Assembly: GCA_002380425.1 (NCBI GenBank)
Contig: DFUR01000013.1
Coordinates: 554 to 64,553, forward strand
Direction: 5' to 3'
DNA length: 64,000 bases
Source of the DNA: Bacteroidales bacterium UBA4181
GTDB taxonomy: Bacteria > Bacteroidota > Bacteroidia > Bacteroidales > UBA4181
In this document: one piece after another, positions 2,969-52,587 of the stretch
How positions within the stretch are numbered: the first letter of the stretch is position 1
Layout: the number at the start of each line of letters is the position of its first letter
The notes under the pieces: generated by a model
Told to the model about the DNA's origin: nothing
The model's input: the letters and a program-made list of their open reading frames with translations, nothing else
Database searches by the model: none
Translations under genes and position numbers: made by a program

Positions 2969-3634
2969 ATGGCTGATAAAGTGATTGTATTGGGTTCTTC
3001 CGGACACGCCCGGAGTGTTGCCTGTGTGCTCGAAGACCTCAATTATGAGGTTGTGGGCTTTGTGGACTCATTTCGGCCTCCCGGTGAGCCCGTCCTTAGG
3101 TACAAAACCCTTGGGGATGAGCATGTTATGAGGGATTGCCAAAGGCGGTATGGAACCCGCTCCGTGGTAGTCGGTGTGGGGGATATTCTCAGCAGAAAGA
3201 GGGTGGTTCAGCTAATCCGTGAAATCAACCCTGATGTTGTTTTCCCCACAATCGTCTCTCCCCACGCCAAAGTTTCGCATTATGCTTCTCTTGGTGAGGG
3301 TACGGTAGTGCTGTCCCATGCTCTGGTGAATGTGGAGTGTTTGGTAGGTTGTTTTTGTGTGCTCAATTCGGCCAGCCTTATTGAACACAACACCCGAATC
3401 GGGGATTATTGCAGCATATCTCCTGGTGCAAACATCGGAGCCAATGTCTCTGTTGGAGAGGGAGTCTTTATCGGTTCCTCTGCCACCCTCATTCAGCGCC
3501 GGAGCGTAGGTGCTTATTCGGTCATTGGAGCTGGGGCTGTGGTTACACAGGATTTGCCGGACCATGTGCTTGCTGTCGGTGTCCCCGCGGTGGTAAAACG
3601 AGAGAATTATGTTAATGTTAATATTTTCAGATGA
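2969..3634 (+). CDS. NeuD/PglD/PerB-family sugar N-acyltransferase (left-handed beta-helix)
   Basis: N-terminal 'KVIVLGSSGHARSVACVLEDLNYEVVGFVD' followed by hexapeptide repeats ('IGDYCSISPGANIGANVSVGEGVFIGSSATL'). Confidence 0.8.
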   Translation: MADKVIVLGSSGHARSVACVLEDLNYEVVGFVDSFRPPGEPVLRYKTLGDEHVMRDCQRRYGTRSVVVGVGDILSRKRVVQLIREINPDVVFPTIVSPHAKVSHYASLGEGTVVLSHALVNVECLVGCFCVLNSASLIEHNTRIGDYCSISPGANIGANVSVGEGVFIGSSATLIQRRSVGAYSVIGAGAVVTQDLPDHVLAVGVPAVVKRENYVNVNIFR

Positions 3635-3704
3635 TTGCATTCGGAAATGCTTCTGTGGCAATGTTCTGGAAGATGCCGCGCCAGAGAGCTAAACGTTTGG
3701 CGAT

Positions 3705-5000
3705 ATGAGTATTGGAGGATTTTTGCGCAGAAAGTTTTATTGGACTTTCGATTACTTCAAAGGCAGGCCTGTTGGCAAGCATTACAACGACATAAGCAGG
3801 ATTCTGAGGAACAGTAATGGCGAGGGGCCAGTGCTTCAACAGGAGCATCTGGCGCGACTGCTTCGGCATGCAGTTGAGCATTCCCCATTCTATGAAGCAT
3901 GTGATCCAGCAAGGCTCGATTCCTTTCCTGTCATCAACAAATCCTTGATCAGGGCACATCAGGATGCCATGAAGGTCCCTGTTCAAGTGATTCCCGAACA
4001 CACTGGCGAGATGCATATCCAGCGAACAAGTGGCTCTACCGGTACTCCGTTGGCGGTGCCTCAGGATAAGCGGAAGCGAAACCGGAGAATAGCCGAACTC
4101 AAATATTTTGGGGCCATTGCCGGGTATCCTTCTCACGAGAAAATGGCCCAGTTGAGAATCTGGACCAAATGGCAGAGCAAGGGGGCATTTCAGTCATTCA
4201 AGGAAAACATCTACCCGGTTGATTGCAGCCGGATGAATGATGAAATGTTGTCGGCTCTGTGTGTTCTGGTGAGAAAAAAAAGAATCCGTGCTCTTTGGGG
4301 CTACGCGAGTTGGTTCGATAAACTTGCCTCATTTGTTGCTTCGAACAGGGTGCGTCTTCCGTCTCTCAGGGTGGTAATTGCCGGTTCGGAGATGCTTCAG
4401 CCGGAAACCCGGGATACACTCAGGAGTGAACTTGGCTGTTCGGTTATTTCCAGATATTCAAATGAAGAACAGGGCGTTCTGGGGCAGGACAAAGAGGAGG
4501 ATGAGCACTATCACCTGAACCATGCCAGCTATTTTTTTGAATTTCTCCGAATGGACCGAGATGAAGCGGCTCAGCCCGGGGAGCTCTGCCGGATTGTTGT
4601 AACGGATTTGTTCAACTATGCGTTTCCTTTGATTCGTTATGATACAGGAGACACCGGCATATATGGGAACTCTGTCTCCGGTTTTCCTGTTTTGTGCAAG
4701 ATATATGGACGATTGCTCGATTTGGTGAGTGACACACAGGGCCTTCCGGTTCATCCCATGACAATTGCCAGGATATTGAAAAACTATGACCCGGTGGAGC
4801 AGTGGCAATTCACCCAGAAGAGCCCGGAGGAATATGAACTTAAATGGGTGTTGTCCGGAACCTTGGATTCGTCGGATTGTGTTGGAGAGCTTAGAAAAGT
4901 TTTTGGGCAGGATGCCCAGGTGTCAGTGGTTGAAGTGTCAGAAATACCTGTGTTGTCCTCTGGAAAGCGCAGGCTGGTAAAAAATGAATCAAATCAATGA
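3705..5000 (+). CDS. PaaK/CapK-like adenylate-forming enzyme (phenylacetate-CoA ligase / F390 synthetase family)
   Basis: 431 aa. It has the AMP-binding loop 'RTSGSTGTPLAV', 'IRYDTGD' and a C-terminal 'SGKRRLV'. Confidence 0.75.
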   Translation: MSIGGFLRRKFYWTFDYFKGRPVGKHYNDISRILRNSNGEGPVLQQEHLARLLRHAVEHSPFYEACDPARLDSFPVINKSLIRAHQDAMKVPVQVIPEHTGEMHIQRTSGSTGTPLAVPQDKRKRNRRIAELKYFGAIAGYPSHEKMAQLRIWTKWQSKGAFQSFKENIYPVDCSRMNDEMLSALCVLVRKKRIRALWGYASWFDKLASFVASNRVRLPSLRVVIAGSEMLQPETRDTLRSELGCSVISRYSNEEQGVLGQDKEEDEHYHLNHASYFFEFLRMDRDEAAQPGELCRIVVTDLFNYAFPLIRYDTGDTGIYGNSVSGFPVLCKIYGRLLDLVSDTQGLPVHPMTIARILKNYDPVEQWQFTQKSPEEYELKWVLSGTLDSSDCVGELRKVFGQDAQVSVVEVSEIPVLSSGKRRLVKNESNQ

Positions 5001-5638
5001 AAAAAATCTATTTGCTGGGTGTAGGGCGAAATACGCCGGTTTGTATGGATCTTGCAATCAGGTGCGGTTATGAGGTGGCGGGATTGTACCACTACAATGA
5101 TGAAAGAACGGGTGAGTCGGATCACGGGATTCTTATTCTGGGTTCGTTCGCTGATTTGTTTGCAAGGGATTCCCTGCAGGGATTGAATTTCCTGCTGACC
5201 ATGGGGGACAGCCGGATCCGGGTGGAGGTCGCCGATCGATTGCGCAAATTGGGAGCTAATCTGCCTTCTTTGATTCATCCTGCTGCCGTTGTCTCGGGCT
5301 TTGCTACCATAGAGGATGGGGTAACCGTGAATGCATTTTCAAACATTCAGGCTGATGTTTACATAGGCCAGGATAGTTTGATACTATCTGGTGTCAATGT
5401 CTCACACGGTTGTGTTCTTGACAAGGGGTGTTTCATTGCCGGCGGAGCCACTGTGGGTGCCCTCACAAAGGTAGGAGCTTGTGCTTTCATTGGGCAGGGG
5501 GCATTGATTCTTTCTTCCAAAGTTGATTCCATAGGAGAATACGCCGTTATTGGCGCCGGTGCTCTGGTTACAAAGCCTGTTGCACCTCATGATGTGGTTG
5601 CCGGAAGACCAGCCAAAAGCATTAAATCAACCGTATGA
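4997..5638 (+). CDS. Second NeuD/PglD-family acyltransferase (hexapeptide)
   Basis: 'MKKIYLLGVGRNTPVCMDLAIRCGYEVAGLY' plus hexapeptide repeats ('GCFIAGGATVGALTKVGACAFIGQGALI'). ATGA overlap with the upstream gene. Confidence 0.75.
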   Translation: MKKIYLLGVGRNTPVCMDLAIRCGYEVAGLYHYNDERTGESDHGILILGSFADLFARDSLQGLNFLLTMGDSRIRVEVADRLRKLGANLPSLIHPAAVVSGFATIEDGVTVNAFSNIQADVYIGQDSLILSGVNVSHGCVLDKGCFIAGGATVGALTKVGACAFIGQGALILSSKVDSIGEYAVIGAGALVTKPVAPHDVVAGRPAKSIKSTV

Positions 5639-6927
5639 TACGCATTGCACTTGTAGGGGATGTGATGATTACCAGGCCGCTGCCCTCTCAGGGCTATGAG
5701 GGCCAGCATCTGTTGACGCAATTGATTCAGGAACACGAGGTGAAATGTGCCAATCTGGAAACCACCATACACCGAAGAGAGGGGTATCCTTCTGCTTTCC
5801 CCGGGGGAACCTGGGCTATGGCCGATCCGGTTTGTCTTGAAGATATCAAAAGCCTGGGTTTTAATGTGCTCAATACGGCCAACAACCACTCGATGGATTA
5901 TGCACATAAGGGTTTGCTCGCTACACACAGACATCTGCGCAGGGCCGGTTTGACCTATTTTGGAACTGGTCAGAATCTGGCTGAGGCCTCGGCTCCATTG
6001 TTCACTGAGTGCTCAGAAGGTCGGGTGGCATTTGTCGGTGTCACCAGTTCTTTTCATGATTCGGATGCTGCGGGCCATCAGCGCAGGGACATGCAGGGAC
6101 GCCCCGGTGTCAATCCTTTACGGCACAAGTCGGTGTGCGAGATTTCGCCTGAGAACTTTACTGCCCTTCGGCATGTTGCCGAACAGACTGGTGTGAATGA
6201 TTATCATCATCAGGCCATCAGGGAAGGCTTTCTCCTGCCCAGAGAGAACCTCACTATTGGGCCGTATGAGTTTGTCCAGGGTGGGAGCAACGTACTTCGA
6301 ACTTTCCCTTTGGAGAAGGATGTGGAACGCATCGCGAAATCTGTTTCTGAGGCCCGGAAGCAGGCCGATTGTGTGGTGGTGAGCGTTCATTCGCATCAGT
6401 TTTCGAACAGAGACAAGTCCATTCCGGCTGAGTTCCTGTCTCTATTTTCCAGGACATGTATTGATGCCGGTGCATCTGTGATTGTGGGCCATGGCCCGCA
6501 TATTTTGCGGGGCATTGAAGTGTATCACGGCGGAGTGATATGCTACAGTCTGGGCAATTTTATTTTTCAGAACGAGACGGTTTCACATCTTCCTGCTGAG
6601 TTTTACGAGAAGTATTCCCTTGCCCATGATGATGGAGTCGGTACCGCCATGGATAAGCGAAGCCAGAATGGGACCAAGGGCCCTGCCAGCGATCCGGACT
6701 CATGGAAAAGCGTGCTGGTGAGCATAGCGCTGGAACCTGACACCATGAGCATCCGGTTGGTTCCGGTGGAACTGGGGTTTCATCTTGAACGCTACAATAG
6801 AGGTTTGCCCAAAATATCCGGAGACACTGCCGTTTTGGAACGCATACAAGCCTTGTCTGTTCCCTTTGGGACAGAGATTCATATCCGCAATGGGGAGGGT
6901 TTTCTCAAAGTTTCACGGAGAATCTGA
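5635..6927 (+). CDS. CapA/PGA_cap-family metallophosphoesterase-like protein
   Basis: 'IALVGDVMITR', 'ANLETTI' and 'FNVLNTANNHSMDYAHKGLLATHRHLRRAGLTYFGTG' match the pattern of poly-gamma-glutamate CapA-type proteins. ATGA overlap upstream. Confidence 0.7.
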   Translation: MIRIALVGDVMITRPLPSQGYEGQHLLTQLIQEHEVKCANLETTIHRREGYPSAFPGGTWAMADPVCLEDIKSLGFNVLNTANNHSMDYAHKGLLATHRHLRRAGLTYFGTGQNLAEASAPLFTECSEGRVAFVGVTSSFHDSDAAGHQRRDMQGRPGVNPLRHKSVCEISPENFTALRHVAEQTGVNDYHHQAIREGFLLPRENLTIGPYEFVQGGSNVLRTFPLEKDVERIAKSVSEARKQADCVVVSVHSHQFSNRDKSIPAEFLSLFSRTCIDAGASVIVGHGPHILRGIEVYHGGVICYSLGNFIFQNETVSHLPAEFYEKYSLAHDDGVGTAMDKRSQNGTKGPASDPDSWKSVLVSIALEPDTMSIRLVPVELGFHLERYNRGLPKISGDTAVLERIQALSVPFGTEIHIRNGEGFLKVSRRI

Positions 6928-6990
6928 GCAAGTACGTTTCGCTTCCATGGAAAAAATGATTAGTTTTACGCATACAACATATCGAGACAT

Positions 6991-7857
6991 ATGAAAGGGA
7001 TTATACTTGCCGGAGGTAGTGCTACCCGTCTTTATCCACTCTCCAAGGCCATTTCCAAACAAATCATGCCGGTGTACGACAAGCCCATGATTTATTATCC
7101 TCTTTCCACCCTGATGTTGGCGGGCATTCGTGAGGTATTGGTGATCTCCACTCCGAGGGACCTTCCCATGTTTCGGGAACTGCTCGGGGATGGCCGTCAC
7201 CTCGGAATGCGTCTGGAGTATAAGGTTCAGGATGTCCCCAATGGTCTGGCTCAGGCATTTGTTCTGGGTGCGGAGTTTCTTTCCGGTGAGCCGGCCTGTC
7301 TCATCCTGGGGGATAATTTATTCTATGGCCATGGTTTCCCGTCCCTGCTTCGCGGGGTGGTGGCCCATTCTGGCTCCGGAGCCTGTATCTTTGGTTACCC
7401 GGTGAAGGATCCCCGTGCTTATGGGGTGGTTTCGTTTGACGCAGACGGCACAGTACTGAGTCTTGAAGAAAAACCTGAGCATCCTCTTTCCAATTACGCG
7501 GTCCCCGGGCTGTATTTCTACGACAGTACCGTATCCGCCCGTGCTGCTGCCCTGAAGCCTTCTGCCAGAGGAGAGTACGAGATTACAGACCTCAATAAGT
7601 GTTATCTGGCCGAAGGGACCCTTAGAGTGGAACTCCTCGGGAGAGGGTTTGCCTGGCTGGACACCGGGAATTGCGACAGCCTCCTGGAAGCATCCAATTT
7701 TGTGCACACAGTTCAAAGCCGCCAGGGCTTTCAGATATCCTGTATTGAAGAGATTGCCTGGCGCAACGGATGGATCACCGATGAGCAGTTGCAGAAATTG
7801 GGACAAGCTCTGTCCAAGACGGAATACGGCCAGTATTTGCTGAGTCTGGTGCATTAG
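6991..7857 (+). CDS. rfbA: Glucose-1-phosphate thymidylyltransferase
   Basis: '[53 protein letters not shown]' is a near-canonical RmlA N-terminus. 288 aa. Confidence 0.95.
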
Positions 7858-7938
7858 GGGCCGGGATTGCCCTGGCTGCCGGGATTTGAGCCGTTTTGTG
7901 TATCTTTGTCCTGTATCAACCAACCTTTGCCCCCGTTT

Positions 7939-9078
7939 ATGAAGAAATATCTTGTCACCGGCGGAGCCGGTTTTATCGGAGCCAATTATGTCAAGTACCT
8001 GCTGCACACCTATGCTGATGTGAACCTCGTCGTGCTGGATGCCCTGACCTATGCCGGAAACTATCGTACCATCGAGCAGGATGTGGATGGGGAACGTTGT
8101 TGCTTCGTCAAAGGTGACATCTGCGACCGTGAATTGGTGGACCGTATCTTTGAGGAGCATGGAGTGCAGGTGGTGGTAAATTTTGCTGCGGAGAGCCATG
8201 TGGACCGGAGTATCGAAAACCCACAGCTTTTCCTGGTTACCAACATTCTGGGCACGCAGAACCTGTTGGATGCTGCTCGCCGTCACTGGGTAACGGGCAA
8301 GGATGCGCAGGGATATCCCCAATGGAAACAGGGTGTGCGTTTTCATCAGGTTTCGACCGATGAAGTGTATGGCAGCCTGGGTGAGGAGGGATACTTCACC
8401 GAAGAGACCCCCCTGGATCCGCGAAGCCCTTACAGTGCCTCCAAAACCAGTGCAGACCTCTTTGTCCGGGCTTATGTGGAAACCTTCAAAATGCCGGCGA
8501 CCATCACCCGTTGTTCCAACAACTACGGGCCATATCACTTTCCCGAAAAATTGATCCCCTTGATTATTAAGAACATTCTGGAGGGAAAGCCCCTCCCGGT
8601 GTACGGTAACGGGAGCAATGTCCGTGATTGGTTGTATGTGGAGGACCACTGCAAGGCTATAGAAATGGTCGTGCGTAAGGGGCGTCCTGGCGAAGTGTAC
8701 AATGTGGGAGGACACAACGAGATGCAGAATCTGGAGATTGTGAGAATGGTGATTGCCAATATCCGCAGCATTATGGACCGGGAGCCGGGTTATCGGGAGG
8801 TATTGAAAAAGAAGGAATACAATGCCCAGGGAGAGATCCGCACCGACTGGATCAACGAAACCCTCATCACGTTTGTGGCCGACCGGCTGGGGCATGACCA
8901 GCGATACGCTATTGACCCCACCAAGATTACCGGCGAACTGGGCTGGTATCCTGAAACCCGCTTTGCACAGGGCATTGTCCAAACCATCTACTGGTATCTG
9001 GATCATCAGGATTGGGTGGATGAAGTGACCAGCGGCTCGTACCAGCAGTACTACCAGCAGATGTACACAGACCGGTAA
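7939..9078 (+). CDS. rfbB: dTDP-glucose 4,6-dehydratase
   Basis: 'MKKYLVTGGAGFIGANYV', 'YSASKTSADLFVRAY' (YxxxK) and 'NNYGPYHFPEKLIP'. I prefer ATG at 7939 over the TTG-initiated track ORF at 7867. Confidence 0.95.
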   Translation: MKKYLVTGGAGFIGANYVKYLLHTYADVNLVVLDALTYAGNYRTIEQDVDGERCCFVKGDICDRELVDRIFEEHGVQVVVNFAAESHVDRSIENPQLFLVTNILGTQNLLDAARRHWVTGKDAQGYPQWKQGVRFHQVSTDEVYGSLGEEGYFTEETPLDPRSPYSASKTSADLFVRAYVETFKMPATITRCSNNYGPYHFPEKLIPLIIKNILEGKPLPVYGNGSNVRDWLYVEDHCKAIEMVVRKGRPGEVYNVGGHNEMQNLEIVRMVIANIRSIMDREPGYREVLKKKEYNAQGEIRTDWINETLITFVADRLGHDQRYAIDPTKITGELGWYPETRFAQGIVQTIYWYLDHQDWVDEVTSGSYQQYYQQMYTDR

Positions 9079-9163
9079 AAGGATTTGTCGCCCCAGTGTT
9101 GTTCTTTCAGTTCTTTTTGCTAATATTGCATGGAATAACGAGTAAAAAACTTACTCATTTGCT

Positions 9164-9697
9164 ATGTTGGAGGGCCTGATTACCTCAAAAACACGGATTA
9201 AGCTGCTGACTAAGTTCTTCATCAATGCGGGGACTACGGCTTATTTGCGTCATCTTGAATCGGAATTCGGGGAGTCAACCAATGCCATCCGGGTGGAATT
9301 GAACCGGCTGGAAAAGGCTGGATTGCTTGAGTCGGAGCGTTCCGGAAACAAAAAAATCTTCAGGGCCAATACCCAACACCCCTATTTTGGGGAAATCAAC
9401 CGCATTTTGCTCAAGTTTGTGGGCATTGAGGCAGTGATTGACCAAGTGGTGCGCAAGGTGGGGGTACTGGTCCGGGCCTATGTTACCGGGGATTTTGCCA
9501 TGGGTCGGCCCGGGAATATTCTGGACATCGCTCTTATTGGGAGCGGGTTTGATTATGCATACCTGAACAGCCTGATCAAAAGGGCTGAACAAACTGTGTC
9601 GTTCAAAATACGATACATCACTCTGGAGCCTGGGGAGGAAAAGTTGTTTGTTTCCACCCAGAATAGTGTGCTTTTGGTTTGGTCCTCAGGGAACTAG
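9164..9697 (+). CDS. Winged-helix (ArsR-like) transcriptional regulator with an uncharacterised C-terminal domain
   Basis: 'AYLRHLESEFGESTNAIRVELNRLEKAGLLESERSGNKKIF' has a wHTH pattern. It sits directly upstream of wza/wzc. A 6-bp hairpin GAGTAA-aaaac-TTACTC (9140..9156) lies just 5' of the start. Confidence 0.5.
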   Translation: MLEGLITSKTRIKLLTKFFINAGTTAYLRHLESEFGESTNAIRVELNRLEKAGLLESERSGNKKIFRANTQHPYFGEINRILLKFVGIEAVIDQVVRKVGVLVRAYVTGDFAMGRPGNILDIALIGSGFDYAYLNSLIKRAEQTVSFKIRYITLEPGEEKLFVSTQNSVLLVWSSGN

Positions 9698-9782
9698 ACC
9701 ATTAGTGCAGTGTGTGGCTTGCTTGGACCCTATGGGACTGAGGAGGCGAAGCTGTAAGTATCCCTGCATTGGGAGATTGTTG

Positions 9783-9790
9783 TACCTTTG
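9783..9790 (+). promoter_or_regulatory. Candidate -7 box TACCTTTG
   Basis: Exact TAnnTTTG match about 20 nt upstream of the wza ATG (9810). It lies in the largest intergenic gap (112 nt) of the plus-strand array. Confidence 0.35.
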
Positions 9791-9809
9791 ACCCGTTGGT
9801 GAAACTATT

Positions 9810-10607
9810 ATGAACTGTATGAAGAACTATTCCATGCGCGCCCTGTTGTGGCTGCCGGCATTGCTTGCTTTGGGGATATCCTCGTGTATCCCTCAGAAGT
9901 CTGTTATCTACCTGCAGGACAAGACCCAGCAGGAAGGCTATGTGAATCCTTACCGTCAGGCCACCGAGATCACGGAGAACTACAAGATTCAGGTGAACGA
10001 TTACCTGTATGTGCGCGTGATCACCGGGGACCCGGAGTTGGAGAAATACTACAATCTCTCAACCGGTACCGGACAGATGTCCACACAAGGGGGAAACTCC
10101 ATGAAATTCAGCTCCTATCTGGTGGCCGATAATGGGTGCATAGATTTTCCTTATCTGGGAGATGTGCCCGTGCAAGGGCTCACACTTAGTCAGGCCAAGG
10201 CCCGTCTGTCGGAATTGCTCAGCAAGCAGATTGACCAGTACACGCTTCAGGTGCAACTTACCAATACCTTCTTCACCGTGTTGGGTGAGGCTGGCTCGGG
10301 CATGTATCCCATGAACAAGGATCAGCTCACCATCTACGAGGCTCTGGCAATGGCGGGGGACCTGAAAACTTATTCCAAACGAAATAAGGTGAAGATTATC
10401 CGGAAAGGATCAGACGGGGTTTCTTCCATTCGCGAGGTGGACCTTACTGACAAGAATTTGCTCGATTCGCAGGAGTCGTATATTCTGCCCAATGATATTG
10501 TTTATGTGGAACCTATCAAGGCTAAGATGCTGGGTTTTGGAGAGACCTTCTCTCTGGGGCTGGTTACCACCCTTATTTCGTTCTATTTGTTGATTCTGTC
10601 CTTGTAA
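9810..10607 (+). CDS. wza: Polysaccharide export outer-membrane lipoprotein (Wza family)
   Basis: Lipoprotein-type signal 'MRALLWLPALLALGISSC', a Poly_export-like 'YKIQVNDYLYVRV' and an SLBB-like segment 'KVKIIRKGSDG'. It is adjacent to wzc. Confidence 0.85.
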   Translation: MNCMKNYSMRALLWLPALLALGISSCIPQKSVIYLQDKTQQEGYVNPYRQATEITENYKIQVNDYLYVRVITGDPELEKYYNLSTGTGQMSTQGGNSMKFSSYLVADNGCIDFPYLGDVPVQGLTLSQAKARLSELLSKQIDQYTLQVQLTNTFFTVLGEAGSGMYPMNKDQLTIYEALAMAGDLKTYSKRNKVKIIRKGSDGVSSIREVDLTDKNLLDSQESYILPNDIVYVEPIKAKMLGFGETFSLGLVTTLISFYLLILSL

Positions 10608-10617
10608 CCGTACTGTT

Positions 10618-13089: not shown

Positions 13090-13095
13090 TTTCGC

Positions 13096-14998: not shown

Positions 14999-15037
14999 CC
15001 AATATTTCCAACATCCCATCAATACACATCCGTTTTC

Positions 15038-38747: not shown

Positions 38748-38748
38748 T

Positions 38749-39756: not shown

Positions 39757-39757
39757 G

Positions 39758-41773: not shown

Positions 41774-41778
41774 AAAAC

Positions 41779-43565: not shown

Positions 43566-44547
43566 TTATTCAAGACACCGGTTGTCACATGGTGCAGAGC
43601 CGGTTTCGGAGCAGCCACCGGTGTCTGTAGTGGTGATTACCTATCAGTCGGCTCCCTATGTGATTCAGACACTTGAGAGCGTGTTGCAGCAAACCTATCC
43701 CAAGTTGGAACTGATTGTGTCCGATGATGCCTCGGACGATGAAACCGCTCAGTTGTGTGAGGCCTGGTTGGAGACCCACAAAGACCGTTTTGTCCGAACC
43801 CGATGGATTTCTTCGCCGCTGAATACAGGAATTCCAGCGAATTGCAACCGGGGGTGCAAAGCAGCACAGGGAGAATGGATCAAGATTATTGCGGGAGACG
43901 ATCAGTTGTTGCCTGAATGCATCACCCAAAATGTGGCCTTTGTGCGTGCTCATCCTCATGCCCGTCTGGTTTGTTCCCGCGCACTGAAGATGGACGAGCA
44001 GGGCATAGAGCTGGAAGGCTCTGAGTATTACAAAGGCGAACCCGATGCGTTGCGGGCGTGTTTCTTTTCACGGTCAGCAGGGAGACAACGCCGGTTTTAT
44101 GCCCGACATCCCATCTCCCTGGTGGCACCTTCTTTTTTTGTGAAGCGTTCTATGTTGGAACGGGTGGGCGGATTTGATGACCGGTTGCGGGTATTCGAGG
44201 ATATGTCCCTCGTGTGCCGGATTCTCAGGGCCGGCTGGAAAATTCATTGGATGGAGCAGACATCGGTACGCTACCGGATTCGGACTAGCTCCGTTTCGCG
44301 ACAGAAGAATCCGGAACGACAGGCCCGGAACCTGGAGGAACTCGAATTCATCTACCGGCACTACCGCAGGAAACATCTTCGCTGGTGGCGGCCTCTGGAC
44401 CTTTGTGCTATGACAGAGGCTTTTATAACCTTTACCTATGCTGGCCGTTGGGGAGGCAAGGGAGCCCGGTTTCTTCTGAAACTGAATCCCTACCGCTTGT
44501 ATGAGTGTTTTGTTTGCCGGATTTACCGTCAGAGGCATGACGATTAA
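43552..44547 (+). CDS. GT2-family glycosyltransferase
   Basis: 'VSVVVITYQSAPYVIQTLESVLQQTYPKLELIVSDDASDDET' and 'IAGDDQLL'. Confidence 0.85.
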   Translation: MPGHNYSRHRLSHGAEPVSEQPPVSVVVITYQSAPYVIQTLESVLQQTYPKLELIVSDDASDDETAQLCEAWLETHKDRFVRTRWISSPLNTGIPANCNRGCKAAQGEWIKIIAGDDQLLPECITQNVAFVRAHPHARLVCSRALKMDEQGIELEGSEYYKGEPDALRACFFSRSAGRQRRFYARHPISLVAPSFFVKRSMLERVGGFDDRLRVFEDMSLVCRILRAGWKIHWMEQTSVRYRIRTSSVSRQKNPERQARNLEELEFIYRHYRRKHLRWWRPLDLCAMTEAFITFTYAGRWGGKGARFLLKLNPYRLYECFVCRIYRQRHDD

Positions 44548-45652
44548 TTATATTACCAATCAGTCCCTGGACAGTATTAGCGGCGGCTGGAACGGGAATA
44601 ACGCCCGGGTCTATGCCGAACTCGCCCGGAGGATGACGGTGAACTATGTGGGTCCTGTCCATCCTCCTGTGGATCGCTTTGAGGCGGGTTATTCCCGTCT
44701 TCGTCGGCTTATGGGACTCAAAGGAGGTTTTGCGGCTTTCTCCCACCGCAGATTGTCACAGATTGCCAGGGAGGTGGATGTCCTGAAGTACCCATCGGAT
44801 TATTGTATGTTCTGGGGGCAGATGCCCTGGCTCTATTGTGCTCCGGCAGAGCCTTACGGGGTGTATCTGGATGTGCCTTTCAGGAGTTATGTACGCATTT
44901 TTCTGGAGGAACACCGGTTTCAGGAAAAGGAGCTGTGCCGGATAGAACAGTTGGAAGCCAGATGGCTGGCCAATGCGCGCCACGTCTTTTGGGGATCACA
45001 GTGGGCTTTGGATCAGGCTTCGGCCTACAAGGCTCTGGGCGTGACAAACAGCAGGGTAGTGTGGGTTGGTGGCAATCTGGAGATTCCTCCGGGTGATGAG
45101 TACCGGGATTCTTGTACCTTCCTTTTTGTGGCACTTCGTTTCAGGGAGAAAGGGGGAATGATGGTCTGGGAGGCCTTTCGCAAGGTCCGGGAACGACACC
45201 CGGAGTGTAACTGGGTGATTGCCGGGGCGAGTCCTCCTCCCGAGGTACTCGCTACTCCGGGGGTGGTTTATGCTGGTATGTTCCGCAAGGAGTCGCCTGA
45301 CGAGTTGGAGCAGTTCAGAGCTCTGATGGCCGGGGCCTTTTGTTTGGTGCATCCTACGTCCATGGACACTCTGGGTCAGGTGATTATTGAGGCGGGGTAT
45401 CATGGCTGTCCTGCCATTGCGCCAGCTCGTTTTGGCATTCCGGAACTGATTCATCACCAACAGACCGGCATCCTGCTTCCGGAGCATTTCACCGTTCAGG
45501 ATGTAGCGGCTGCGATGGAATGGATGCTCGATCACCCTTCAGAATACCTTCATATGCGGCGGGAGGTTCGGGCATACAGTACCGGGGAACTAACCTTTGA
45601 CAGGGTTGGAGAGAAGATTTCTTCAGCCATTATGGAGGTGAGTCATGAGTAA
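44537..45652 (+). CDS. GT4-like (GT-B) glycosyltransferase
   Basis: 'LGQVIIEAGYHGCPAIAPARFGIPELIHHQQTGILL' is an EX7E-like region. I prefer the start at 44537 (MTINY). Confidence 0.7.
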   Translation: MTINYITNQSLDSISGGWNGNNARVYAELARRMTVNYVGPVHPPVDRFEAGYSRLRRLMGLKGGFAAFSHRRLSQIAREVDVLKYPSDYCMFWGQMPWLYCAPAEPYGVYLDVPFRSYVRIFLEEHRFQEKELCRIEQLEARWLANARHVFWGSQWALDQASAYKALGVTNSRVVWVGGNLEIPPGDEYRDSCTFLFVALRFREKGGMMVWEAFRKVRERHPECNWVIAGASPPPEVLATPGVVYAGMFRKESPDELEQFRALMAGAFCLVHPTSMDTLGQVIIEAGYHGCPAIAPARFGIPELIHHQQTGILLPEHFTVQDVAAAMEWMLDHPSEYLHMRREVRAYSTGELTFDRVGEKISSAIMEVSHE

Positions 45653-46787
45653 ACCTCATAAGTGGGCCGTAGTGCATTTCCTGCCCCTGGAGAAATATCC
45701 CCCGGTGATGAATTTTCTCCGGATGCTTGGAGCTCAGGGTGTGAACTTCCTGGCACTGACCACCAGGGTCGGGCCAGCCATGCCACGGTTCGTGGTTCCT
45801 GATGGTCGCATTACCCGTTTCGGTGCCACAGGCCAGAATGTGCCTGGTTGGTTGCGGAAACTGACTTATCCGCTTTTCTATGCAGCCGCTTTCGTGCGGC
45901 TGTGTCTGTATCGTCCGTCGGTGGTGTTGTATTATGAGTCCTATTCGGCCATTCCGGTTTATTTCTATCTGCGTTTTGTCAATTCTAAAGCCCGTTTGCT
46001 GATCCATTTTCACGAATACTTCTCACCTCAGTGGTATCAGCAGGGTATGCGTACCGTGCGTTGGGCCCATCGTTTGGAGAAGTCCTGGCTGTTTGGACGT
46101 GCTGCGCTGATATCTCAAACCAATGCCTTCAGGGTGGGCATGTTCCGTAAAGATCATCCGACAGTGCCAGAGAGCCGGATGATGGTTGTGCCTAACTTTC
46201 CGCCCCTGGCCTGGAAACAGCGCAGCAGGCGAGTGGACGAGCCCGGATGTCCTCTGAGGACGGTGTATATCGGGTCGGTTTCCCTGCGAGCTACCTATCT
46301 GGAAGATTATGTCGCATGGGTGCAGCAGCAACAGGGCCGGGTGTTGTTCGATGTGGTGTCCTATACCTATGATGCTGCTGCCCGGAATTTTCTGGAACAA
46401 CTTCAATCTCCCTGGGTGCGTTTCTTTCCCGGAGGACTGCCTTATGACCAGATTCCGGGATGGCTGGAGCGGGGGCAATATGACGTGGGCATTATATTTT
46501 ATAAAGGCCTGTACGACAATACCGTATTCTGCGCCTCCAACAAATTGTTTGAATATCTTGCCTGTGGCCTGGATGTTTGGTGCTGTCGCGAAATGGTTGG
46601 TTCGCAGGAGTATGCCCGTACAGACTGTTATCCTAAGGTGCTTATGGTTGATTATACCCGTATCGGGGAATGGGATGTACAGAACATGACGGACCGAGAA
46701 GGAATAGGCTACCGTCCCCCGGAATATTTTGCCGAGCCGGCCATGGAGGCATGGTTGCATCAGTTTGAGTCTGTTCAAGAGGGATGA
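45645..46787 (+). CDS. GT-B fold glycosyltransferase
   Basis: 'WAVVHFLPLEKYPPVMNFLRML' and the C-domain segment 'SNKLFEYLACGLDVWC'. Confidence 0.6.
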   Translation: MSKPHKWAVVHFLPLEKYPPVMNFLRMLGAQGVNFLALTTRVGPAMPRFVVPDGRITRFGATGQNVPGWLRKLTYPLFYAAAFVRLCLYRPSVVLYYESYSAIPVYFYLRFVNSKARLLIHFHEYFSPQWYQQGMRTVRWAHRLEKSWLFGRAALISQTNAFRVGMFRKDHPTVPESRMMVVPNFPPLAWKQRSRRVDEPGCPLRTVYIGSVSLRATYLEDYVAWVQQQQGRVLFDVVSYTYDAAARNFLEQLQSPWVRFFPGGLPYDQIPGWLERGQYDVGIIFYKGLYDNTVFCASNKLFEYLACGLDVWCCREMVGSQEYARTDCYPKVLMVDYTRIGEWDVQNMTDREGIGYRPPEYFAEPAMEAWLHQFESVQEG

Positions 46788-47803
46788 AAAGGTTTTTGTA
46801 CATAGGACAATATGAGCCCGGCTGCACCTCCAGAATGCGGGCGGACACTTTGCTGGAGCTGCTCCCCGGGTATGTTTTTGAAGTGGCAGATACCCTGATC
46901 CCGTTCAGGCAGACATCCCGCCTGCTGCGTTCTCTGGGATTTCGCTTCAAGTGCGGGCCACTGGTAGCCCGGATCAACCGCATGGTGCTTGCGTGCGCTC
47001 AGCAGCAAAGTTATGAGGCGATTTGGGTGGACAAAGGGGTTTTTCTCACCCGCGAAACCCTGAAAACATTGCGCAGCAAGACAGGCCTGTTGATTCACTA
47101 CACCCCGGATGCCGCGTGGTATGCCAATCGTTCCCGTCATTTTGAACGTGGGATGGATCTTTATGATTTTCTTATTACTACCAAGTCTTTTGAGATGGAC
47201 TGGTATCTTTCCAGGGTCCCCCGTGGAAAGGTGCTGCTGACCACTCAGGGCTTTGACCCGCAAGTGCATTACCCAAGGGTGCCATTTCAGGATAAGGTGC
47301 CCTGCATTACCTTTATTGGGTTGTGTGAGCCAGCCAGGGAGAAACTGGTCGCCCTGCTTTTGTGCAGTGGTTTGGAGGTGCATTTGGGCGGGACGGGATG
47401 GACTTCATTTGTGCACGAGCATGCTTCTGAGAACCTTGTTTACCTCGGAGAAAGAGTGATGCACGATGCCTATGCCCATGAGATTTCCCGCTCCTTCTTC
47501 GCTCTTGGATGTCTTTCCAAACGTTTCCCGGAGTTGCACACTACCCGAACCTTTGAGATTCCGGCCTGCGGAACGGCCCTGGTGACGGAGTTGAATGAGG
47601 AAACCCGCCGATTTTTCTCTCCTCAGCAGGCAGTTTTTTACGATTCTCCGGAATCACTAACGCAGCAATTGTGCTATTATCTGGAACATCCTTCTGAACT
47701 GGAGCAACTTACAATTATGGGGCATCAAAGAGTCACTCTGTCTGGATATGATTACCCAAGCATTCTGAAAAGCTTGCTGAAAGCAGTACATTTGCACCCA
47801 TGA
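46784..47803 (+). CDS. CgeB-like / Glyco_trans_1_2-type glycosyltransferase
   Basis: 'FLYIGQYEPGCTSRMRADTL' and the C-terminal 'TTRTFEIPACGTALVTE'. ATGA overlap. Confidence 0.55.
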   Translation: MKRFLYIGQYEPGCTSRMRADTLLELLPGYVFEVADTLIPFRQTSRLLRSLGFRFKCGPLVARINRMVLACAQQQSYEAIWVDKGVFLTRETLKTLRSKTGLLIHYTPDAAWYANRSRHFERGMDLYDFLITTKSFEMDWYLSRVPRGKVLLTTQGFDPQVHYPRVPFQDKVPCITFIGLCEPAREKLVALLLCSGLEVHLGGTGWTSFVHEHASENLVYLGERVMHDAYAHEISRSFFALGCLSKRFPELHTTRTFEIPACGTALVTELNEETRRFFSPQQAVFYDSPESLTQQLCYYLEHPSELEQLTIMGHQRVTLSGYDYPSILKSLLKAVHLHP

Positions 47804-49131
47804 AAAGAGTAGAACCTATCCTGTTCGTGGTAACAGCCGTTCTGTTGCTGGTGCTGACCGACCGTCCCCTGCTCTCGGCCATTGGTGTGGGCTTTGTGCC
47901 GGCCATACTGTACAGTTTCTTTGATGAATGCCGCACCCGCATCCCCATTGACAAGCTTATTGTTGCCATGGCGGCGGTGCAATGGATTCTGGGCCCTTTT
48001 TTGGCCTACAGTGGTTACAACGACCATTACAAGTACCACATGTATGTGGAGGAATCCCAGTATATGTTGCTGGCGGTCCCGGGGGTGCTGGCGTTCTGGG
48101 CTGGATTTTGGTTGTTGCGCCATCGAAACAGCGATGGGGTGTTCCGGGTGAGTTTCCCGTGGGTACGTGAGATTCCGCCACGGTATGCCTATTACCTGAT
48201 TATCACTGGGGTGGCCGCCTCTTTTCTGTCTTCTTATGTTCCGGGTGGATTGAAGTTCTTTTTCTACCTGCTGGGGCTCCTGCAATACATCGGGGTTTTG
48301 TACCTGTTCTTTGGGCATTCCAAAAATAAGTACCTGGTGCTGGGCATGAGTGTGCTGGCCATTACGCTGAGTTCCCTCAAGGCAGCGATGTTTCACGACT
48401 TGTTTCTTTGGGTGGTGCTGCTCAGTATGTATCTGATGTACTATTTTCAGATCACCATCCGGCAAAAACTGGTGTATTTCCTTGCAGGGGCATCCGTGAT
48501 TTTTTTGATTCTGGTGGTGAAGGCCGACTACCGGCAAAAGATCTGGGCTGGGGCCATCACGGGACAGGAGGTGAGTTATTTCTCTACTCTGGTGAAAACC
48601 CAGATATCTGAGAATAAGCTATTCAGCAAGCAAAATATTGAAGGGATTGTGGTCCGGCTGAATCAGGGATGGATCATCAGCCGGATTATGGAGCAGGTCC
48701 CTGCCAATGTGCGTCATGCCGATGGAGAAACGGTTTGGGAGGCTGCCAAGGCATCCCTGTTGCCCCGGTTTCTGAATCCTGGCAAGGTGGAGGCAGGTGG
48801 GCGGGAGAACTATACTCGTTTTACTCTTTATGTGATTCATGAGACCTCCATGGGGTTGAGCCTGCTGGGTGAAGGCTATGCCAATTTCGGCATTTACGGG
48901 GCTTGGGTATTCATGCTCTGTGTGGGTTTGTTGTTTGGGTATGTGTTTCGGAAGTTACTTTCGCTTTGCACTCAATATCCATCCCTGGTACTTTGGATTC
49001 CGCTTATTTTCATGCAGGTGGTGAAGGCTGAAACCGAGACCCTGGTGGTTCTCAATTACCTGGTGAAGGCCATCATCCTGACCCTGGTTGTCTTTTACGG
49101 TGCCCGAAACTTCTTGCGTTGGGATATATAA
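47800..49131 (+). CDS. wzy: Polytopic membrane protein, O-antigen/capsule polymerase (Wzy) or ligase-like
   Basis: 443 aa with about 10-12 hydrophobic helices and one larger loop ('ADYRQKIWAGAITGQE...RLNQGWIISRIM'). It has no soluble domains and is embedded among GT genes. I cannot separate Wzy from WaaL by eye. Confidence 0.55.
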   Translation: MKRVEPILFVVTAVLLLVLTDRPLLSAIGVGFVPAILYSFFDECRTRIPIDKLIVAMAAVQWILGPFLAYSGYNDHYKYHMYVEESQYMLLAVPGVLAFWAGFWLLRHRNSDGVFRVSFPWVREIPPRYAYYLIITGVAASFLSSYVPGGLKFFFYLLGLLQYIGVLYLFFGHSKNKYLVLGMSVLAITLSSLKAAMFHDLFLWVVLLSMYLMYYFQITIRQKLVYFLAGASVIFLILVVKADYRQKIWAGAITGQEVSYFSTLVKTQISENKLFSKQNIEGIVVRLNQGWIISRIMEQVPANVRHADGETVWEAAKASLLPRFLNPGKVEAGGRENYTRFTLYVIHETSMGLSLLGEGYANFGIYGAWVFMLCVGLLFGYVFRKLLSLCTQYPSLVLWIPLIFMQVVKAETETLVVLNYLVKAIILTLVVFYGARNFLRWDI

Positions 49132-50123
49132 TGAGAGGGATTACCTATATTATGCGCCGGGAATCTCCCCGGTATTTTAGTATTGAGGCTGTTTTTCGCA
49201 CCATTAACAAGGAACTGGAGCGGAACGGGGTAGATACCCATCGCGTATGTCTGCCTGGAGACGGCGTTTCCGTGCGTACCCTGATGAGAAACCTGTGGCA
49301 TGCCTTTCGTATCCGTTCCCGGGTGGTGCATATCACCGGGGATGTACACTATGTGGCTCCGGTAATCCGTGGCCCCGTGATACTTACCATTCATGATGTA
49401 GGTTCGGCCTTGCGCGGGGGGTGTATGAACCGGTTTTTTATCAAACTATTCTGGTTCTGGATTCCCGCTCTGTGCGTGCGCAGGATCACGGTGATCTCGG
49501 AGTTTTCGGCCCGGGAACTGGTGCGATTGGTGCCTTTTGCCCGCCATAAGGTGCGGGTGATTCCCAATCCCCTGCCCGAGTGTTCCCCTTCAGAGCCCTA
49601 TGACTTTTGTGAAGCCTCCCCGCTGGTCCTCCTGGTCGGCACCAAGGAGAACAAGAACCTCCCCCGAATCGTGCAGGCCCTCACCGGGTTGTCCTGCCGT
49701 TTGCTCATCGTGGGGCACCTTACACCACACCAGCGCAGTATGTTGGACAACAGTGGGCTGGTGTACCGCAACGAGACTGATTTGCCGCCCCAGGCTATGG
49801 CTGAAGTGTACCGTAAGTGTGATCTGTTGTGTTTTGCATCCACCTATGAGGGCTTTGGTCTGCCCATCATCGAAGCGCAGGCTTCGGGCCGTCCTGTGAT
49901 TACTTCGTGCGTGGCCTCCATGCCTGAGGTTGCCGGGAAGGGGGCTCTGTTGGTTGACCCCCACAACCCACAAGCCATCCGGGATGCGTTCCTCAGACTG
50001 GTTCAGGATGCGGATTTGAGAAACCGGCTGATTGCCGAGGGTTTGGAGAATGTGAAGCGTTTTGCTCCGGAACGAGTAGCCGGGGCTTATCTGTCCTTGT
50101 ATCGTGAACTTGCCCGTGTATGA
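49131..50123 (+). CDS. GT4 glycosyltransferase
   Basis: 'YEGFGLPIIEAQASGRPVITSCVASMPEVAGKGALLVDP' is the EX7E region. TAATG overlap start. Confidence 0.8.
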   Translation: MRGITYIMRRESPRYFSIEAVFRTINKELERNGVDTHRVCLPGDGVSVRTLMRNLWHAFRIRSRVVHITGDVHYVAPVIRGPVILTIHDVGSALRGGCMNRFFIKLFWFWIPALCVRRITVISEFSARELVRLVPFARHKVRVIPNPLPECSPSEPYDFCEASPLVLLVGTKENKNLPRIVQALTGLSCRLLIVGHLTPHQRSMLDNSGLVYRNETDLPPQAMAEVYRKCDLLCFASTYEGFGLPIIEAQASGRPVITSCVASMPEVAGKGALLVDPHNPQAIRDAFLRLVQDADLRNRLIAEGLENVKRFAPERVAGAYLSLYRELARV

Positions 50124-51259
50124 AAATACTGGTGTTCATTGACTGGTATTTGCCCGGAACCAGTGCAGGAGGTCCAGTGCGAAGCCTGGCCAATATGTGT
50201 GCGCATTTTGCAGGCACCCACCAATTCCACATTGTCACCCGAAACCGGGATTACTGTGCCCGGGAGCCTTACCGGGATATTGTCCCGGACCGTTGGACGG
50301 ATATGACCGATGGGGTTCGGGTATTTTATGCGGCCTCAACCTCTGGTCTTGTTCGCGTATTGAACGACTCGGTCCGGGATACGTCTTTTGACTGGGTTTA
50401 TATCAATGGGGTGTATTCTTTATTCTATTCGATACTTCCTTTGTGGCGGGCCAGATGGTCTGGGCGCAGGGTTCTGGTTGCCCCGCGCGGGATGTTGAAT
50501 CCACAGGCGTTCACTTCCAAGGCGCTTAAAAAGAGGGTGTATCTTGGGTTAATGCATCTGGTGTGCGGATACCGGGGGGTGGTGTTTCATGCAACCAATC
50601 GGGAGGAGGCAGCGCACATTCGTTCCCGGGTGGGTAGCACTGCTCTTGTCCGGGTGGCCCCGAATCTTCCCAGGAGATTTGCTGCATTGGGTGGGTGGGT
50701 GCATCCTCCAAAAGAGCCCGGAATAGCACGGTTGATATCGGTAGCCAGGATCTCGCCCGAAAAAGGGACCCTGCATGCCCTGAAGCTGCTCTCAGCTCTT
50801 CCAGCAGGGCGGCAGGTGAGCCTGGATATCTTTGGCCCTGTGTATGACCCGCTCTACTGGGAGGAATGTCAACGAGTCATTGATAATTTGCCAGCCCACG
50901 TTGGGGTGCAATACAAAGGTGCTGTTGACGGGGAAAACGTTCCGTCTCTATTGGCGGCATATCATTTCCTGATAATGCTCACGGAGGGAGAGAACTTTGG
51001 ACATGCCATTCTGGAGGCTCTCGGTTGCGGATGCCCTGTAATTATCTCAGACCGGACTCCCTGGAGGAGCTTGACTGAGCAGTCTGCGGGCTGGGATTTT
51101 CCGTTGGGAGACGAAGCCCGTGGCATTTCTGCACTCACACAGGCCCTGGATTTGTCGGAAATGGAGTATATTCGCTGGTCGGAGTCTGCCCAAAGGCTGG
51201 CTGCCGATTTTGGGTCCGACCCGGGCCTTGTGAAAGCGAACAGTGAGTTATTCGAATAA
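50120..51259 (+). CDS. GT4 glycosyltransferase
   Basis: 'MKILVFIDWYLPGTSAGGPVRSL' and 'GENFGHAILEALGCGCPVIISDRTPW'. ATGA overlap. Confidence 0.8.
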   Translation: MKILVFIDWYLPGTSAGGPVRSLANMCAHFAGTHQFHIVTRNRDYCAREPYRDIVPDRWTDMTDGVRVFYAASTSGLVRVLNDSVRDTSFDWVYINGVYSLFYSILPLWRARWSGRRVLVAPRGMLNPQAFTSKALKKRVYLGLMHLVCGYRGVVFHATNREEAAHIRSRVGSTALVRVAPNLPRRFAALGGWVHPPKEPGIARLISVARISPEKGTLHALKLLSALPAGRQVSLDIFGPVYDPLYWEECQRVIDNLPAHVGVQYKGAVDGENVPSLLAAYHFLIMLTEGENFGHAILEALGCGCPVIISDRTPWRSLTEQSAGWDFPLGDEARGISALTQALDLSEMEYIRWSESAQRLAADFGSDPGLVKANSELFE

Positions 51260-51820
51260 ATGCTTATGCACCCCCGCCCCTTGGTTCAGTTAAAGTCTTT
51301 TGACAATTCCTGGTATCACCCCGGCCGGCCGTTCTGGGTTCGGGGTTTGTGGTTTTTGGTGAATGTGGCGGTTCTTCAGTGTCCCCTGAATCCTGGTTCA
51401 CGCCTCCGGGTTTGGGCATTGCGCCTTTTCGGTGCCCGTGTTGGAGCGGGGGTGGTCATCAAGCCCCGGGTGAACATCAAGTATCCCTGGAAATTGCAGA
51501 TAGGCAATGATTGCTGGATAGGTGAGGGGGTGTGGATAGACAATTTGGGCATGGTCGTGCTGGAACACGATGTCTGTCTTTCGCAGGAATGTTTGTTGTT
51601 GTGTGGTAACCACAACTACAAAGCGCCCTCGTTTGATTTGATGGTGGGGGACATTCTGGTGGAGTCGGGCTCCTGGATCGGTGCCCGGTCCGTGGTGTGT
51701 CCCGGGGTGACGGTTCGGTCTCATGCCGTGCTCACCGCAGGCTCTGTGGCCACATCCGATATGGAAGCGTGGGGCGTGTATCAGGGCCATCCGGCCCGGA
51801 AAATCAGAGAAAGGTTATGA
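51260..51820 (+). CDS. WcaF-like hexapeptide O-acetyltransferase
   Basis: 'FDNSWYHPGRPFWVRGLWFLVN' and the hexapeptide region 'IGNDCWIGEGVWIDNLGMVVLEHDVCLSQ'. This layout matches colanic-acid WcaF-type enzymes. Confidence 0.8.
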   Translation: MLMHPRPLVQLKSFDNSWYHPGRPFWVRGLWFLVNVAVLQCPLNPGSRLRVWALRLFGARVGAGVVIKPRVNIKYPWKLQIGNDCWIGEGVWIDNLGMVVLEHDVCLSQECLLLCGNHNYKAPSFDLMVGDILVESGSWIGARSVVCPGVTVRSHAVLTAGSVATSDMEAWGVYQGHPARKIRERL

Positions 51821-52587
51821 AAATCTCAGTGATTACAGCCTGTTATAACAGTCAGGCATATCTGGCTTCGGCGATAGAATCCGTGCTCAAGCAATCCTAC
51901 GACAATATTGAGTATATCCTGGTGGACGGGGCCTCGGAAGATGCCACACTGGAAATTGTGCGTCGTTACACCCCTGCTTTTGGGAATCGGATGGTGCTGA
52001 TCAGTGAGCAGGACCAGGGTATTTATGATGCCATCAACAAAGGAATTGCCCGGGCTACCGGGGATGTGGTAGGGGTGTTGCACTCCGATGATTTGTATGC
52101 TTCTCCGGATGTGTTGCAGCATGTGGCTGAGGCGTTTAATCATTCCCTCGCCGATGTGGTCTATGGGGATCTGTGTTATGTGGATCCGAAGAACCTGAAA
52201 AGGGTGAAGCGACACTGGAAAAGTATGCCCTTTCGCCCGGGAATGCTGCATCGGGGATGGATGCCGGCGCATCCTTCGGTGTTTGTCCGTAAGTCCGTGT
52301 ATGAGCGGTTGGGGCCCTATGATGAGAAACTAACCATCTCCGGGGATTATGATTATATGCTGCGCTTGTTTTCTGCACCCATATCCTCAAGTTATGTTGG
52401 AGAGGTATTCACCCTGATGCGTAGCGGAGGTACCAGCAACCGGAACCTGAAAAATCTGTGGAAGAAATCCCGGCAGGACATCGTTGCCCTGAAGAAGAAC
52501 GGCCTTCCCCGTCCTGTATCGACTGTACTGTTGAAGAATATTCGGAAATTGCCCCAGGTGATTCCCGGGAGTAGCCTATTTCTGTAA
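51817..52587 (+). CDS. GT2-family glycosyltransferase
   Basis: 'MKISVITACYNSQAYLASAIESVLKQSYDNIEYILVDGASEDAT' and 'LHSDDLY'. ATGA overlap start at 51817. Confidence 0.85.
   Translation: MKISVITACYNSQAYLASAIESVLKQSYDNIEYILVDGASEDATLEIVRRYTPAFGNRMVLISEQDQGIYDAINKGIARATGDVVGVLHSDDLYASPDVLQHVAEAFNHSLADVVYGDLCYVDPKNLKRVKRHWKSMPFRPGMLHRGWMPAHPSVFVRKSVYERLGPYDEKLTISGDYDYMLRLFSAPISSSYVGEVFTLMRSGGTSNRNLKNLWKKSRQDIVALKKNGLPRPVSTVLLKNIRKLPQVIPGSSLFL

Follow-up and report, generated by a model that had tools for sequence, protein, structure and literature searches.

We examined a 64,000-nucleotide stretch of the genome of the uncultured Bacteroidales bacterium UBA4181 (the window), in which an exceptionally long run of co-directional genes (positions 2969-52587) is followed by upxY, a gene for an antiterminator of the UpxY family. 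Export, assembly, nucleotide-sugar and glycosyltransferase genes cluster in the run, as is characteristic of a bacterial surface-polysaccharide biosynthesis locus. A previous reading, made from the sequence alone, had placed every open reading frame (ORF) of this interval on the plus strand, and this stands: 46 plus-strand ORFs tile it, all of them coding-like. A hexamer model trained on this genome gave positive coding potential for 46 of the 46, and the same genes were called independently on other assemblies of the same organism. The run consists of six proximal genes, a gene for a winged-helix protein (wHTH) and a block of 39 genes that starts with wza, and a 26-nt ops-like element lies between the wHTH gene and wza (coordinates are collected in Table 1).

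Genes in the run are packed extremely tightly. The start/stop overlaps listed in the sequence-only reading proved exact (11 of 11 ATGA/GTGA junctions and 3 of 3 TGATG/TAATG junctions), and the widest gap past 9810 is indeed the 39 nt at 14999-15037 that it had given. Refined starts give overlaps at 22 of the 45 junctions and a spacing of no more than 10 nt at 38 of 45, and leave 99.2% of the run coding. Gaps of 70, 63, 81, 85 and 112 nt also occur, every one upstream of 9810; the 81-nt gap separates rmlA from rmlB and arises because rmlB begins, after start refinement, at ATG 7939 rather than at TTG 7867. Measured against the genome as background (2.66 Mb in 107 contigs), the run is the longest co-directional one, with 46 genes versus 25 for the next longest and a median of 2. 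Its tight part alone holds 39 genes in 42.8 kb, none of them separated by more than 40 nt; the next best such stretch in the genome holds 12. Junctions of at most 10 nt make up 84% in the run versus 45% among other same-strand pairs, and 4-nt overlaps, with automatically refined starts, 29% versus 13% elsewhere; hand-refined starts give such overlaps at 11 of the 45 run junctions (24%).

The order of the locus, including the wecA/upxY end, is identical in contigs from about ten metagenome samples, the longest of 359 kb and 329 kb, and the run is therefore not an assembly artefact. Bioreactor and digester samples are among those in which the organism occurs, including JGI 3300002079, ERZ724072-75 and SRR5325247/52. 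Its composition is native, with a GC content of 0.515 compared to 0.525 for the genome and GC at third codon positions (GC3) within one standard deviation, and we rejected a foreign-island origin on these grounds. GC3 is lower (0.46-0.54) in the first four genes of the proximal unit, whose gene calls are repeated in other assemblies. A special anti-Rho composition was rejected as well: the G-rich skew and the few C-rich windows of the run equal those of other long leading-strand runs. DNA-level synteny searches of 40 relatives returned only scattered matches of the housekeeping type. On the minus strand, a 562-codon open frame (7318-9006) lies antisense to rmlA and rmlB; it failed the coding-potential model, is covered by two genes with very strong Pfam matches and is most likely a shadow ORF.

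The genes of the tight block include wza, wzc, gmd, wzm, wzt, those for two DegT aminotransferases and about 25 glycosyltransferase genes, together with genes for WbuC, an AsnB-like protein, a polysaccharide deacetylase, a GT2-GT10 glycosyltransferase fusion and a hexapeptide acyltransferase. A search for related loci by means of the 755-aa membrane protein encoded in the block found none. The interval 26678-27882 holds a GT2 gene that lacks the C-terminal part of the paralogue next to it, and then a 159-aa glycosyltransferase fragment. Gene calls on all assemblies include the two, and they look like remains of an old recombination event within the run.

The wHTH protein has more than 6000 homologues at 57-74% identity, and these are embedded in wza/wzc or upxY polysaccharide loci across distant Bacteroidota. 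Comparison of the flanks of the wHTH gene in four species revealed two conserved non-coding features, one upstream and one downstream. The upstream feature is a -7-like box followed by a palindrome, which occurs nowhere else in this genome. Two of the loci compared, L063 and L064, share the conserved box and palindrome (TAACGAGTA-N7-TACTCA); a third, L065, keeps a palindrome, AAGAGTA-N7-TACTCA, behind a TACCTTTG box, and in Prolixibacteraceae a TAnnTTTG box lies within this same palindrome, ahead of the element described below. From this conservation, positions 9121-9156 are the probable promoter and operator of the large unit, and the placement of the palindrome (GAGTA-N7-TACTC) at the wHTH promoter suggests that the protein may be an autoregulated repressor of these loci.

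The downstream feature is the ops-like element, with an invariant 26-nt core, ATGGGACTGAGGAGGCGAAGCTGTAA, at 9732-9757. It is single-copy in this genome even when 3 mismatches are allowed, and exactly one copy is present in each of 5 other genomes checked. A scan of 596 Gb of genomes with TGAGGAGRCGAAGYTGTAA returned 55 matches, compared to about 17 expected by chance. We took as genuine the 49 matches that carry an additional ATG(T/G)(G/A)AC and sit in Bacteroidota-type polysaccharide leaders; they come from Bacteroidales, Prolixibacteraceae, Chitinophagales, Cytophagales, Flavobacteriales and Sphingobacteriaceae. The remaining six matches are without this extension, and most of them lie inside ORFs and in other phyla. 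Many copies have an extension that reads ATGTGAC or ATGTAAC, a start codon followed by a stop codon; the copy in UBA4181 reads ATGGGAC and has no such pair. Two contigs binned as Candidatus Saccharibacteria hold the full module of wHTH, element, upxY, epimerase and wzm genes, and are probably mis-binned.

Linkage of the element to upxY is widespread. At least 12 loci share the order wHTH, element, upxY, epimerase, then wzm and wzt, with upxY starting 4-51 nt (mostly 4-20 nt) after the element. The order in Prolixibacteraceae is palindrome, element, wHTH, wza, wzc, and in four loci the element stands directly before wza-wzc, as it does here. In two further loci upxY lies just upstream of the element. 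A layout in trans recurs independently: in a Prolixibacteraceae metagenome-assembled genome upxY lies about 35 kb beyond the element, and in another genome the two are on different contigs. The runs behind the element in other genomes measure 16, about 25, about 27, 29 and 40.5 kb (the last in genome G044); the 42.8 kb of UBA4181 is the longest run seen behind an element, with others of similar kind.

Structurally, the element comprises two parts. RNAalifold returned the G-GC-GAA-GC-T mini-hairpin as the sole consensus structure, and one natural variant, ACGAAGT, is changed on both sides with the pair kept, i.e., compensatory. The oligonucleotide d(GCGAAGC) is a classic, unusually stable DNA mini-hairpin. 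Ahead of it, a conserved TGAG is fully paired with upstream sequence in 79% of copies versus 34% of shuffles. The 5' arm of this upstream hairpin is a CTCA at -18 to -20 in most copies, and in UBA4181 and L063 an alternative 5' arm, CTTGG...CCC, pairs with the same 3' arm. Rfam gave no matching family and no JUMPstart hit, and a literature search found the motif string in no searchable paper. Strict searches of the window for opsX (YGCGNAGCR) and for the RfaH ops yielded no leader matches.

As the sequence-only reading had it, upxY lies outside the run and downstream of its end, and we find it to be the sole UpxY-family gene not only of the window but of the whole genome. The gene is intact and monocistronic, 1.2 kb past the run end and with no co-directional gene behind it: a convergent gene, part of an AAA_14-rmlC-rmlD block, follows 7 nt past its stop codon. 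Judged from sequence, this layout, with a promoter box of its own at 53751 and a convergent gene next to it, would fit a monocistronic, trans-acting paralogue of the RfaH type; NusG paralogues such as RfaH work in trans from separate cistrons (PMC7819879, PMC7593976). In L063, an identical element is followed 12 nt later by a upxY gene whose product shares 62% identity with the UpxY of UBA4181. A single-copy upxY is usual in this bacterial family. In one related genus (g4) it heads long co-directional loci of wzm/wzt and glycosyltransferase genes, and in another (g2) an operon for a GHMP kinase and a nucleotidyltransferase. In two g4 relatives, a gene of the PD-(D/E)XK nuclease family (PF13366, E-value about 1e-38) directly follows upxY, the place of upxZ in Bacteroides. 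UpxZ itself was sought in the UBA4181 genome (97% complete) with PF06603, which gave no match there and detected the control in B. thetaiotaomicron. No flanking inverted repeats indicative of an invertible promoter were found around 2400-3400, 8700-10200 or 53300-54000.

We used promoter and terminator predictions as a read-out for the number of transcription units. A built-in sigma-70 scan, which is unsuited to Bacteroidota and stayed at shuffle level, was replaced by the Bacteroidota -7 box, TAnnTTTG, and by a position weight matrix (PWM) built from this genome. TAnnTTTG was validated on the genome: its density is 2.44 per kb upstream of genes versus 0.237 per kb in coding sequence, an approximately 10-fold enrichment, with a peak 20-60 nt before starts. 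The PWM has a coding background of 0.035 hits/kb at scores of at least 12 and a sensitivity of only about 38%; it recovers the upxY promoter (53751) and the promoter of usp (57289). Signals in true gaps are confined to the head of the run: candidate boxes at 2918, 7901 and 9783, and a further one at about 9121. Past 9810 the PWM matches 4 times, with 2.9 matches expected, and the box at 47787 is the only internal match near a gene start.

For terminators, a first detector was dropped as too permissive (1.3-1.9 hits per kb in ordinary coding sequence) and replaced by a strict one requiring a compact GC-rich stem and a strong T-tract, whose hits are about 65 times commoner at convergent gene ends than in coding sequence. 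No strict intrinsic terminator occurs in the run, where 0.77 would be expected from the coding background, in agreement with the earlier remark that hairpin terminators were absent. This absence is weak evidence, because the detector marks only 12.7% of the convergent gene ends in the genome. The scans that the sequence-only reading had proposed as a check thus point to few units through the confinement of promoter signals to the head gaps, and contribute little through the missing terminators.

Considering these data together, we favour, with modest confidence, a reading of the run as a native surface-glycan super-locus with two or three promoter-defined units, one of them of about 43 kb and served by UpxY in trans. 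A short proximal unit (2969-9078) would be transcribed from the candidate promoters at 2918 and 7901. The long unit would start at about 9135, from the putative promoter/operator at roughly 9121-9156, and continue through the wHTH gene and the 39 coupled genes to 52587, a distance of some 43.4 kb. Early in this unit the polymerase would meet the 26-nt element, which would present first the hairpin and then the GCGAAGC mini-hairpin on the non-template strand. We infer that the polymerase pauses there and takes up UpxY, which would be supplied in trans from its own small gene at 53803-54309, as RfaH is. The UpxY-modified polymerase, together with near-continuous translational coupling, would resist weak terminators as well as Rho, a factor that this genome has, for the full length of the unit, yielding one continuous transcript.

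This reading retains part of what had been proposed from the sequence. Of the suggestion that the run is one transcription unit or very few, the second option is likely given that promoter signals occur at the head only, and the first six genes (2969-9078) are probably separate. Likewise, the suggestion that such a unit would need processive antitermination is borne out to the extent that sequence and comparison point to a dedicated system, while the downstream position of upxY, which had appeared to conflict with this, is no paradox, because the element that elsewhere stands directly before upxY here stands at the head of the 42.8-kb stretch.

Several observations weigh against our favoured reading. 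The element is followed, at 9783, by a good -7 box; transcripts that start from this box would not contain the element and hence would be outside UpxY control. Flanking bases also differ: G...T around the element, Y...R around opsX of B. fragilis. For the upstream hairpin strict covariation cannot be shown, since its 3' arm does not vary. The upxY leaders of the g4 and g2 relatives are without the element, which indicates that recognition sites differ among UpxY clades; k-mers common to these leaders and the gaps of the UBA4181 genome revealed nothing beyond coding sequence. Finally, the sensitivities of both scans are low (about 38% for promoters and about 13% for terminators), and signals may be hidden within the run, for example at 47787. 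Hidden internal promoters and Rho-dependent stops are both possible.

The last of these points leads to the more serious alternative, which we consider unlikely, though of appreciable probability: that the run is a mosaic of ordinary-sized operons packed head to tail and split by embedded promoters and Rho-dependent or non-canonical terminators, with the element and UpxY acting promoter-proximally only. One boundary could, for example, separate a glycan block of the ABC-transporter type (13096 to about 38747) from one of the Wzy type (38749-52587). Two normally alternative assembly routes, wzm/wzt and a Wzy-like one, are indeed combined in one run along with wza/wzc, and a strong promoter-like box at 47787 precedes the Wzy-like gene by 13 nt. 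Past recombination is suggested by the truncated GT2 gene and the glycosyltransferase fragment at 26678-27882. Moreover, the promoter scan recovers no more than about 38% of genuine upstream regions, and just 12.7% of convergent ends carry a canonical terminator. However, gaps of at most 39 nt throughout 42.8 kb are unmatched in the genome, promoter-like matches past 9810 are at chance level and the run has no strict terminators. Its composition is native and fairly even, its gene order is fixed in about ten samples, and a 40.5-kb run stands behind the same element in G044.

We regard as improbable that the element is instead a wHTH operator or an RNA-level leader signal for processing or translation, with upxY an orphan that has another target or none. 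Linkage of the element to the wHTH gene is no less frequent than its linkage to upxY, the upxY leader of this genome is without it, and UpxY loading at the element is proposed from sequence comparison. Its core also holds a Shine-Dalgarno-like GGAGG, and many copies have ATGTGA or ATGTAA there as well. Yet the separate, conserved promoter palindrome is a more natural wHTH operator, in most loci GGAGG and the start codon that follows are 15-32 nt or more apart, too far for a ribosome-binding site, and the ATGGGAC variants, including that of UBA4181, have no start-stop pair. Whether upxY comes after the element, before it or at a distance, the two stay linked, as expected of a trans-acting protein and its site. 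Furthermore, the GCG-N-AGC core and its place just before upxY match experimentally defined sites: B. fragilis opsX was shown to combine a pause hairpin with YGCGNAGCR on the non-template strand, at least 9 bp before upxY (Saba et al. 2024, PMC11685472).

The arrangement favoured here, a long unit with UpxY acting in trans, resembles three known types of system in part. To our knowledge, B. fragilis is the one species in which UpxY antitermination is understood, and the basic mechanism is obscured there by eight diversified sets of UpxY, ops and UpxZ. Capsule antitermination by UpxY was reportedly described there in 2009 by Chatzidaki-Livanis, and the capsule loci of B. fragilis hold roughly 11-22 genes. 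Common to both are a UpxY-family NusG paralogue tied to a polysaccharide operon and a leader in which an upstream hairpin, predicted in the case of UBA4181, is combined with a GCG-N-AGC hairpin on the non-template strand, in many relatives a few bases before upxY. Unlike B. fragilis with its eight, UBA4181 carries one UpxY and one element in its genome, and neither UpxZ nor an invertible promoter was found here. In UBA4181, upxY is not the first gene of the operon: it has a promoter to itself and is found past the operon's 3' end, and a wHTH gene stands between the operon promoter and the element. The element is near-invariant across the phylum, whereas the B. fragilis sites are diversified, and the operon would be about 43 kb long.

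RfaH of E. coli provides a second comparison: its ops core, GCG-GT-AGC, and the GCG-A-AGC described here have the same stems. The protein, however, is not an RfaH orthologue (TIGR01955, 54.8 bits compared to a cut-off of 144.5), and the 12-nt RfaH ops, GGCGGTAGnnTG, is absent from the window, with GCGGTAGC on neither strand and GCNGTAGC not on the plus strand. RfaH ops functions without a pause hairpin (PMC11685472), whereas an upstream hairpin is present here, and the single target proposed here differs from the several of RfaH. Third, specialised NusG paralogues are encoded beside very long clusters, e.g., the 40-kb TA operon (PMC7819879). LoaP of Bacillus and TaA of Myxococcus, which control very long antibiotic operons, are alike in that the gene for a NusG paralogue adjoins a very long cluster, and unlike in that the products are polyketides and not glycans, the phyla differ, and LoaP is thought to use an RNA hairpin.

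The surroundings of the long run show further features. The wecA-type gene and the last gene of the run converge and overlap by 12 nt (52576-52587), with a recognizable terminator on neither strand; going by this arrangement, colliding transcription or antisense RNA is possible at the junction. Past upxY, rmlC (55730-56278, dTDP_sugar_isom in the annotation of other assemblies), rmlD and a gene for an AAA_14/DUF4143 ATPase form a minus-strand block (55730-57418). The dTDP-rhamnose pathway is divided by this arrangement, with rmlA and rmlB in the run, rmlC and rmlD on the opposite strand, and upxY between them. A gene for a 601-aa pseudouridine synthase (59087-60892) holds, in its 5' part (about 59306-59573), copies of approximately 60 nt that are 75-88% identical, as seen in DNA self-matches.

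Table 1 Features of the polysaccharide locus and its putative control elements, in window coordinates.
Feature	Position	Strand	Description
Candidate -7 box TATATTTT	2918-2925	+	PWM score 13.5; 51 nt before the first gene of the run, in a 64-nt divergent region
Proximal six genes	2969-9078	+	PglD-like acyltransferase, AMP-ligase (CapK-like), second PglD-like protein, CapA-like protein, rmlA, rmlB (Pfam)
rmlA	6991-7857	+	
Candidate internal -7 box TATCTTTG	7901-7908	+	Exact TAnnTTTG; PWM score 14.5; 38 nt before the rmlB ATG
rmlB	7939-9078	+	
-7-like box TAATATTG	9121-9128	+	Upstream of the wHTH gene
Palindrome GAGTAAAAAACTTACTC	9140-9156	+	Just upstream of the wHTH gene; unique in the genome
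wHTH gene	9164-9697	+	177-aa winged-helix (ArsR/PaaX-like) protein; weak Pfam and NCBIfam hits only, none above threshold
ops-like element	9720-9757	+	Hairpin with 3' arm GGGACTGAGGAG, then GCGAAGC mini-hairpin (9746-9752), then TGTAA
Candidate -7 box TACCTTTG	9783-9790	+	PWM score 14.0; between the ops-like element and wza, 27 nt from the wza ATG
Tight block of 39 genes	9810-52587	+	Pfam and NCBIfam annotation; gaps at most 39 nt
dTDP-2,6-dideoxyhexose branch	23374-26659	+	
GtrB-like gene and gene for a 755-aa membrane protein	27887-31115	+	
AsnB-like, deacetylase, GT2-GT10 fusion, Wzy-like and acetyltransferase genes	34872-52587	+	
Promoter-like box TACATTTG	47787-47794	+	PWM score 14.7; 13 nt before the Wzy-like gene, within the preceding gene
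Wzy-like gene	47800-49131	+	
wecA-type initiating transferase gene	52576-53616	-	PF00953; convergent with the last gene of the run
upxY promoter -7 box TATTTTTG	53751-53758	+	PWM score 15.0; 52 nt before ATG 53803
upxY	53803-54309	+	NGN-KOW protein; NF033644 138.7 bits (cut-off 100); Pfam NusG E-value 9e-17

Two things are new in this locus: a upxY that is monocistronic and displaced, and an ops-like 26-mer, near-invariant throughout the phylum, that has a wHTH partner. More tentatively, and at less than even confidence, we propose that outside Bacteroides much of the Bacteroidota may drive its main envelope-glycan operon by one ancestral single-copy module, which in UBA4181 would give rise to one mRNA that spans 40 genes in about 43 kb. 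Four parts would make up the module: a promoter whose operator is palindromic, a regulator of the wHTH type, the near-invariant 26-nt site centred on the d(GCGAAGC) mini-hairpin, and one UpxY able to act from any place in the genome, like RfaH. If true, this mRNA would be among the longest polysaccharide operons proposed, and for this genome the apparent oddity of an antiterminator gene at the wrong end of its operon would be explained. A single UpxY with an almost invariant site would be a much simpler comparator than the system of B. fragilis, and the natural variants, with UpxY encoded behind, before or far from the site, would be useful for studying NusG-paralogue recruitment and polymerase reach. 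The comparison also flags a widespread, uncharacterised wHTH protein as a possible regulator of polysaccharide loci, and the 26-mer may serve as a practical handle for locating the head of the main glycan operon in uncultured Bacteroidota.

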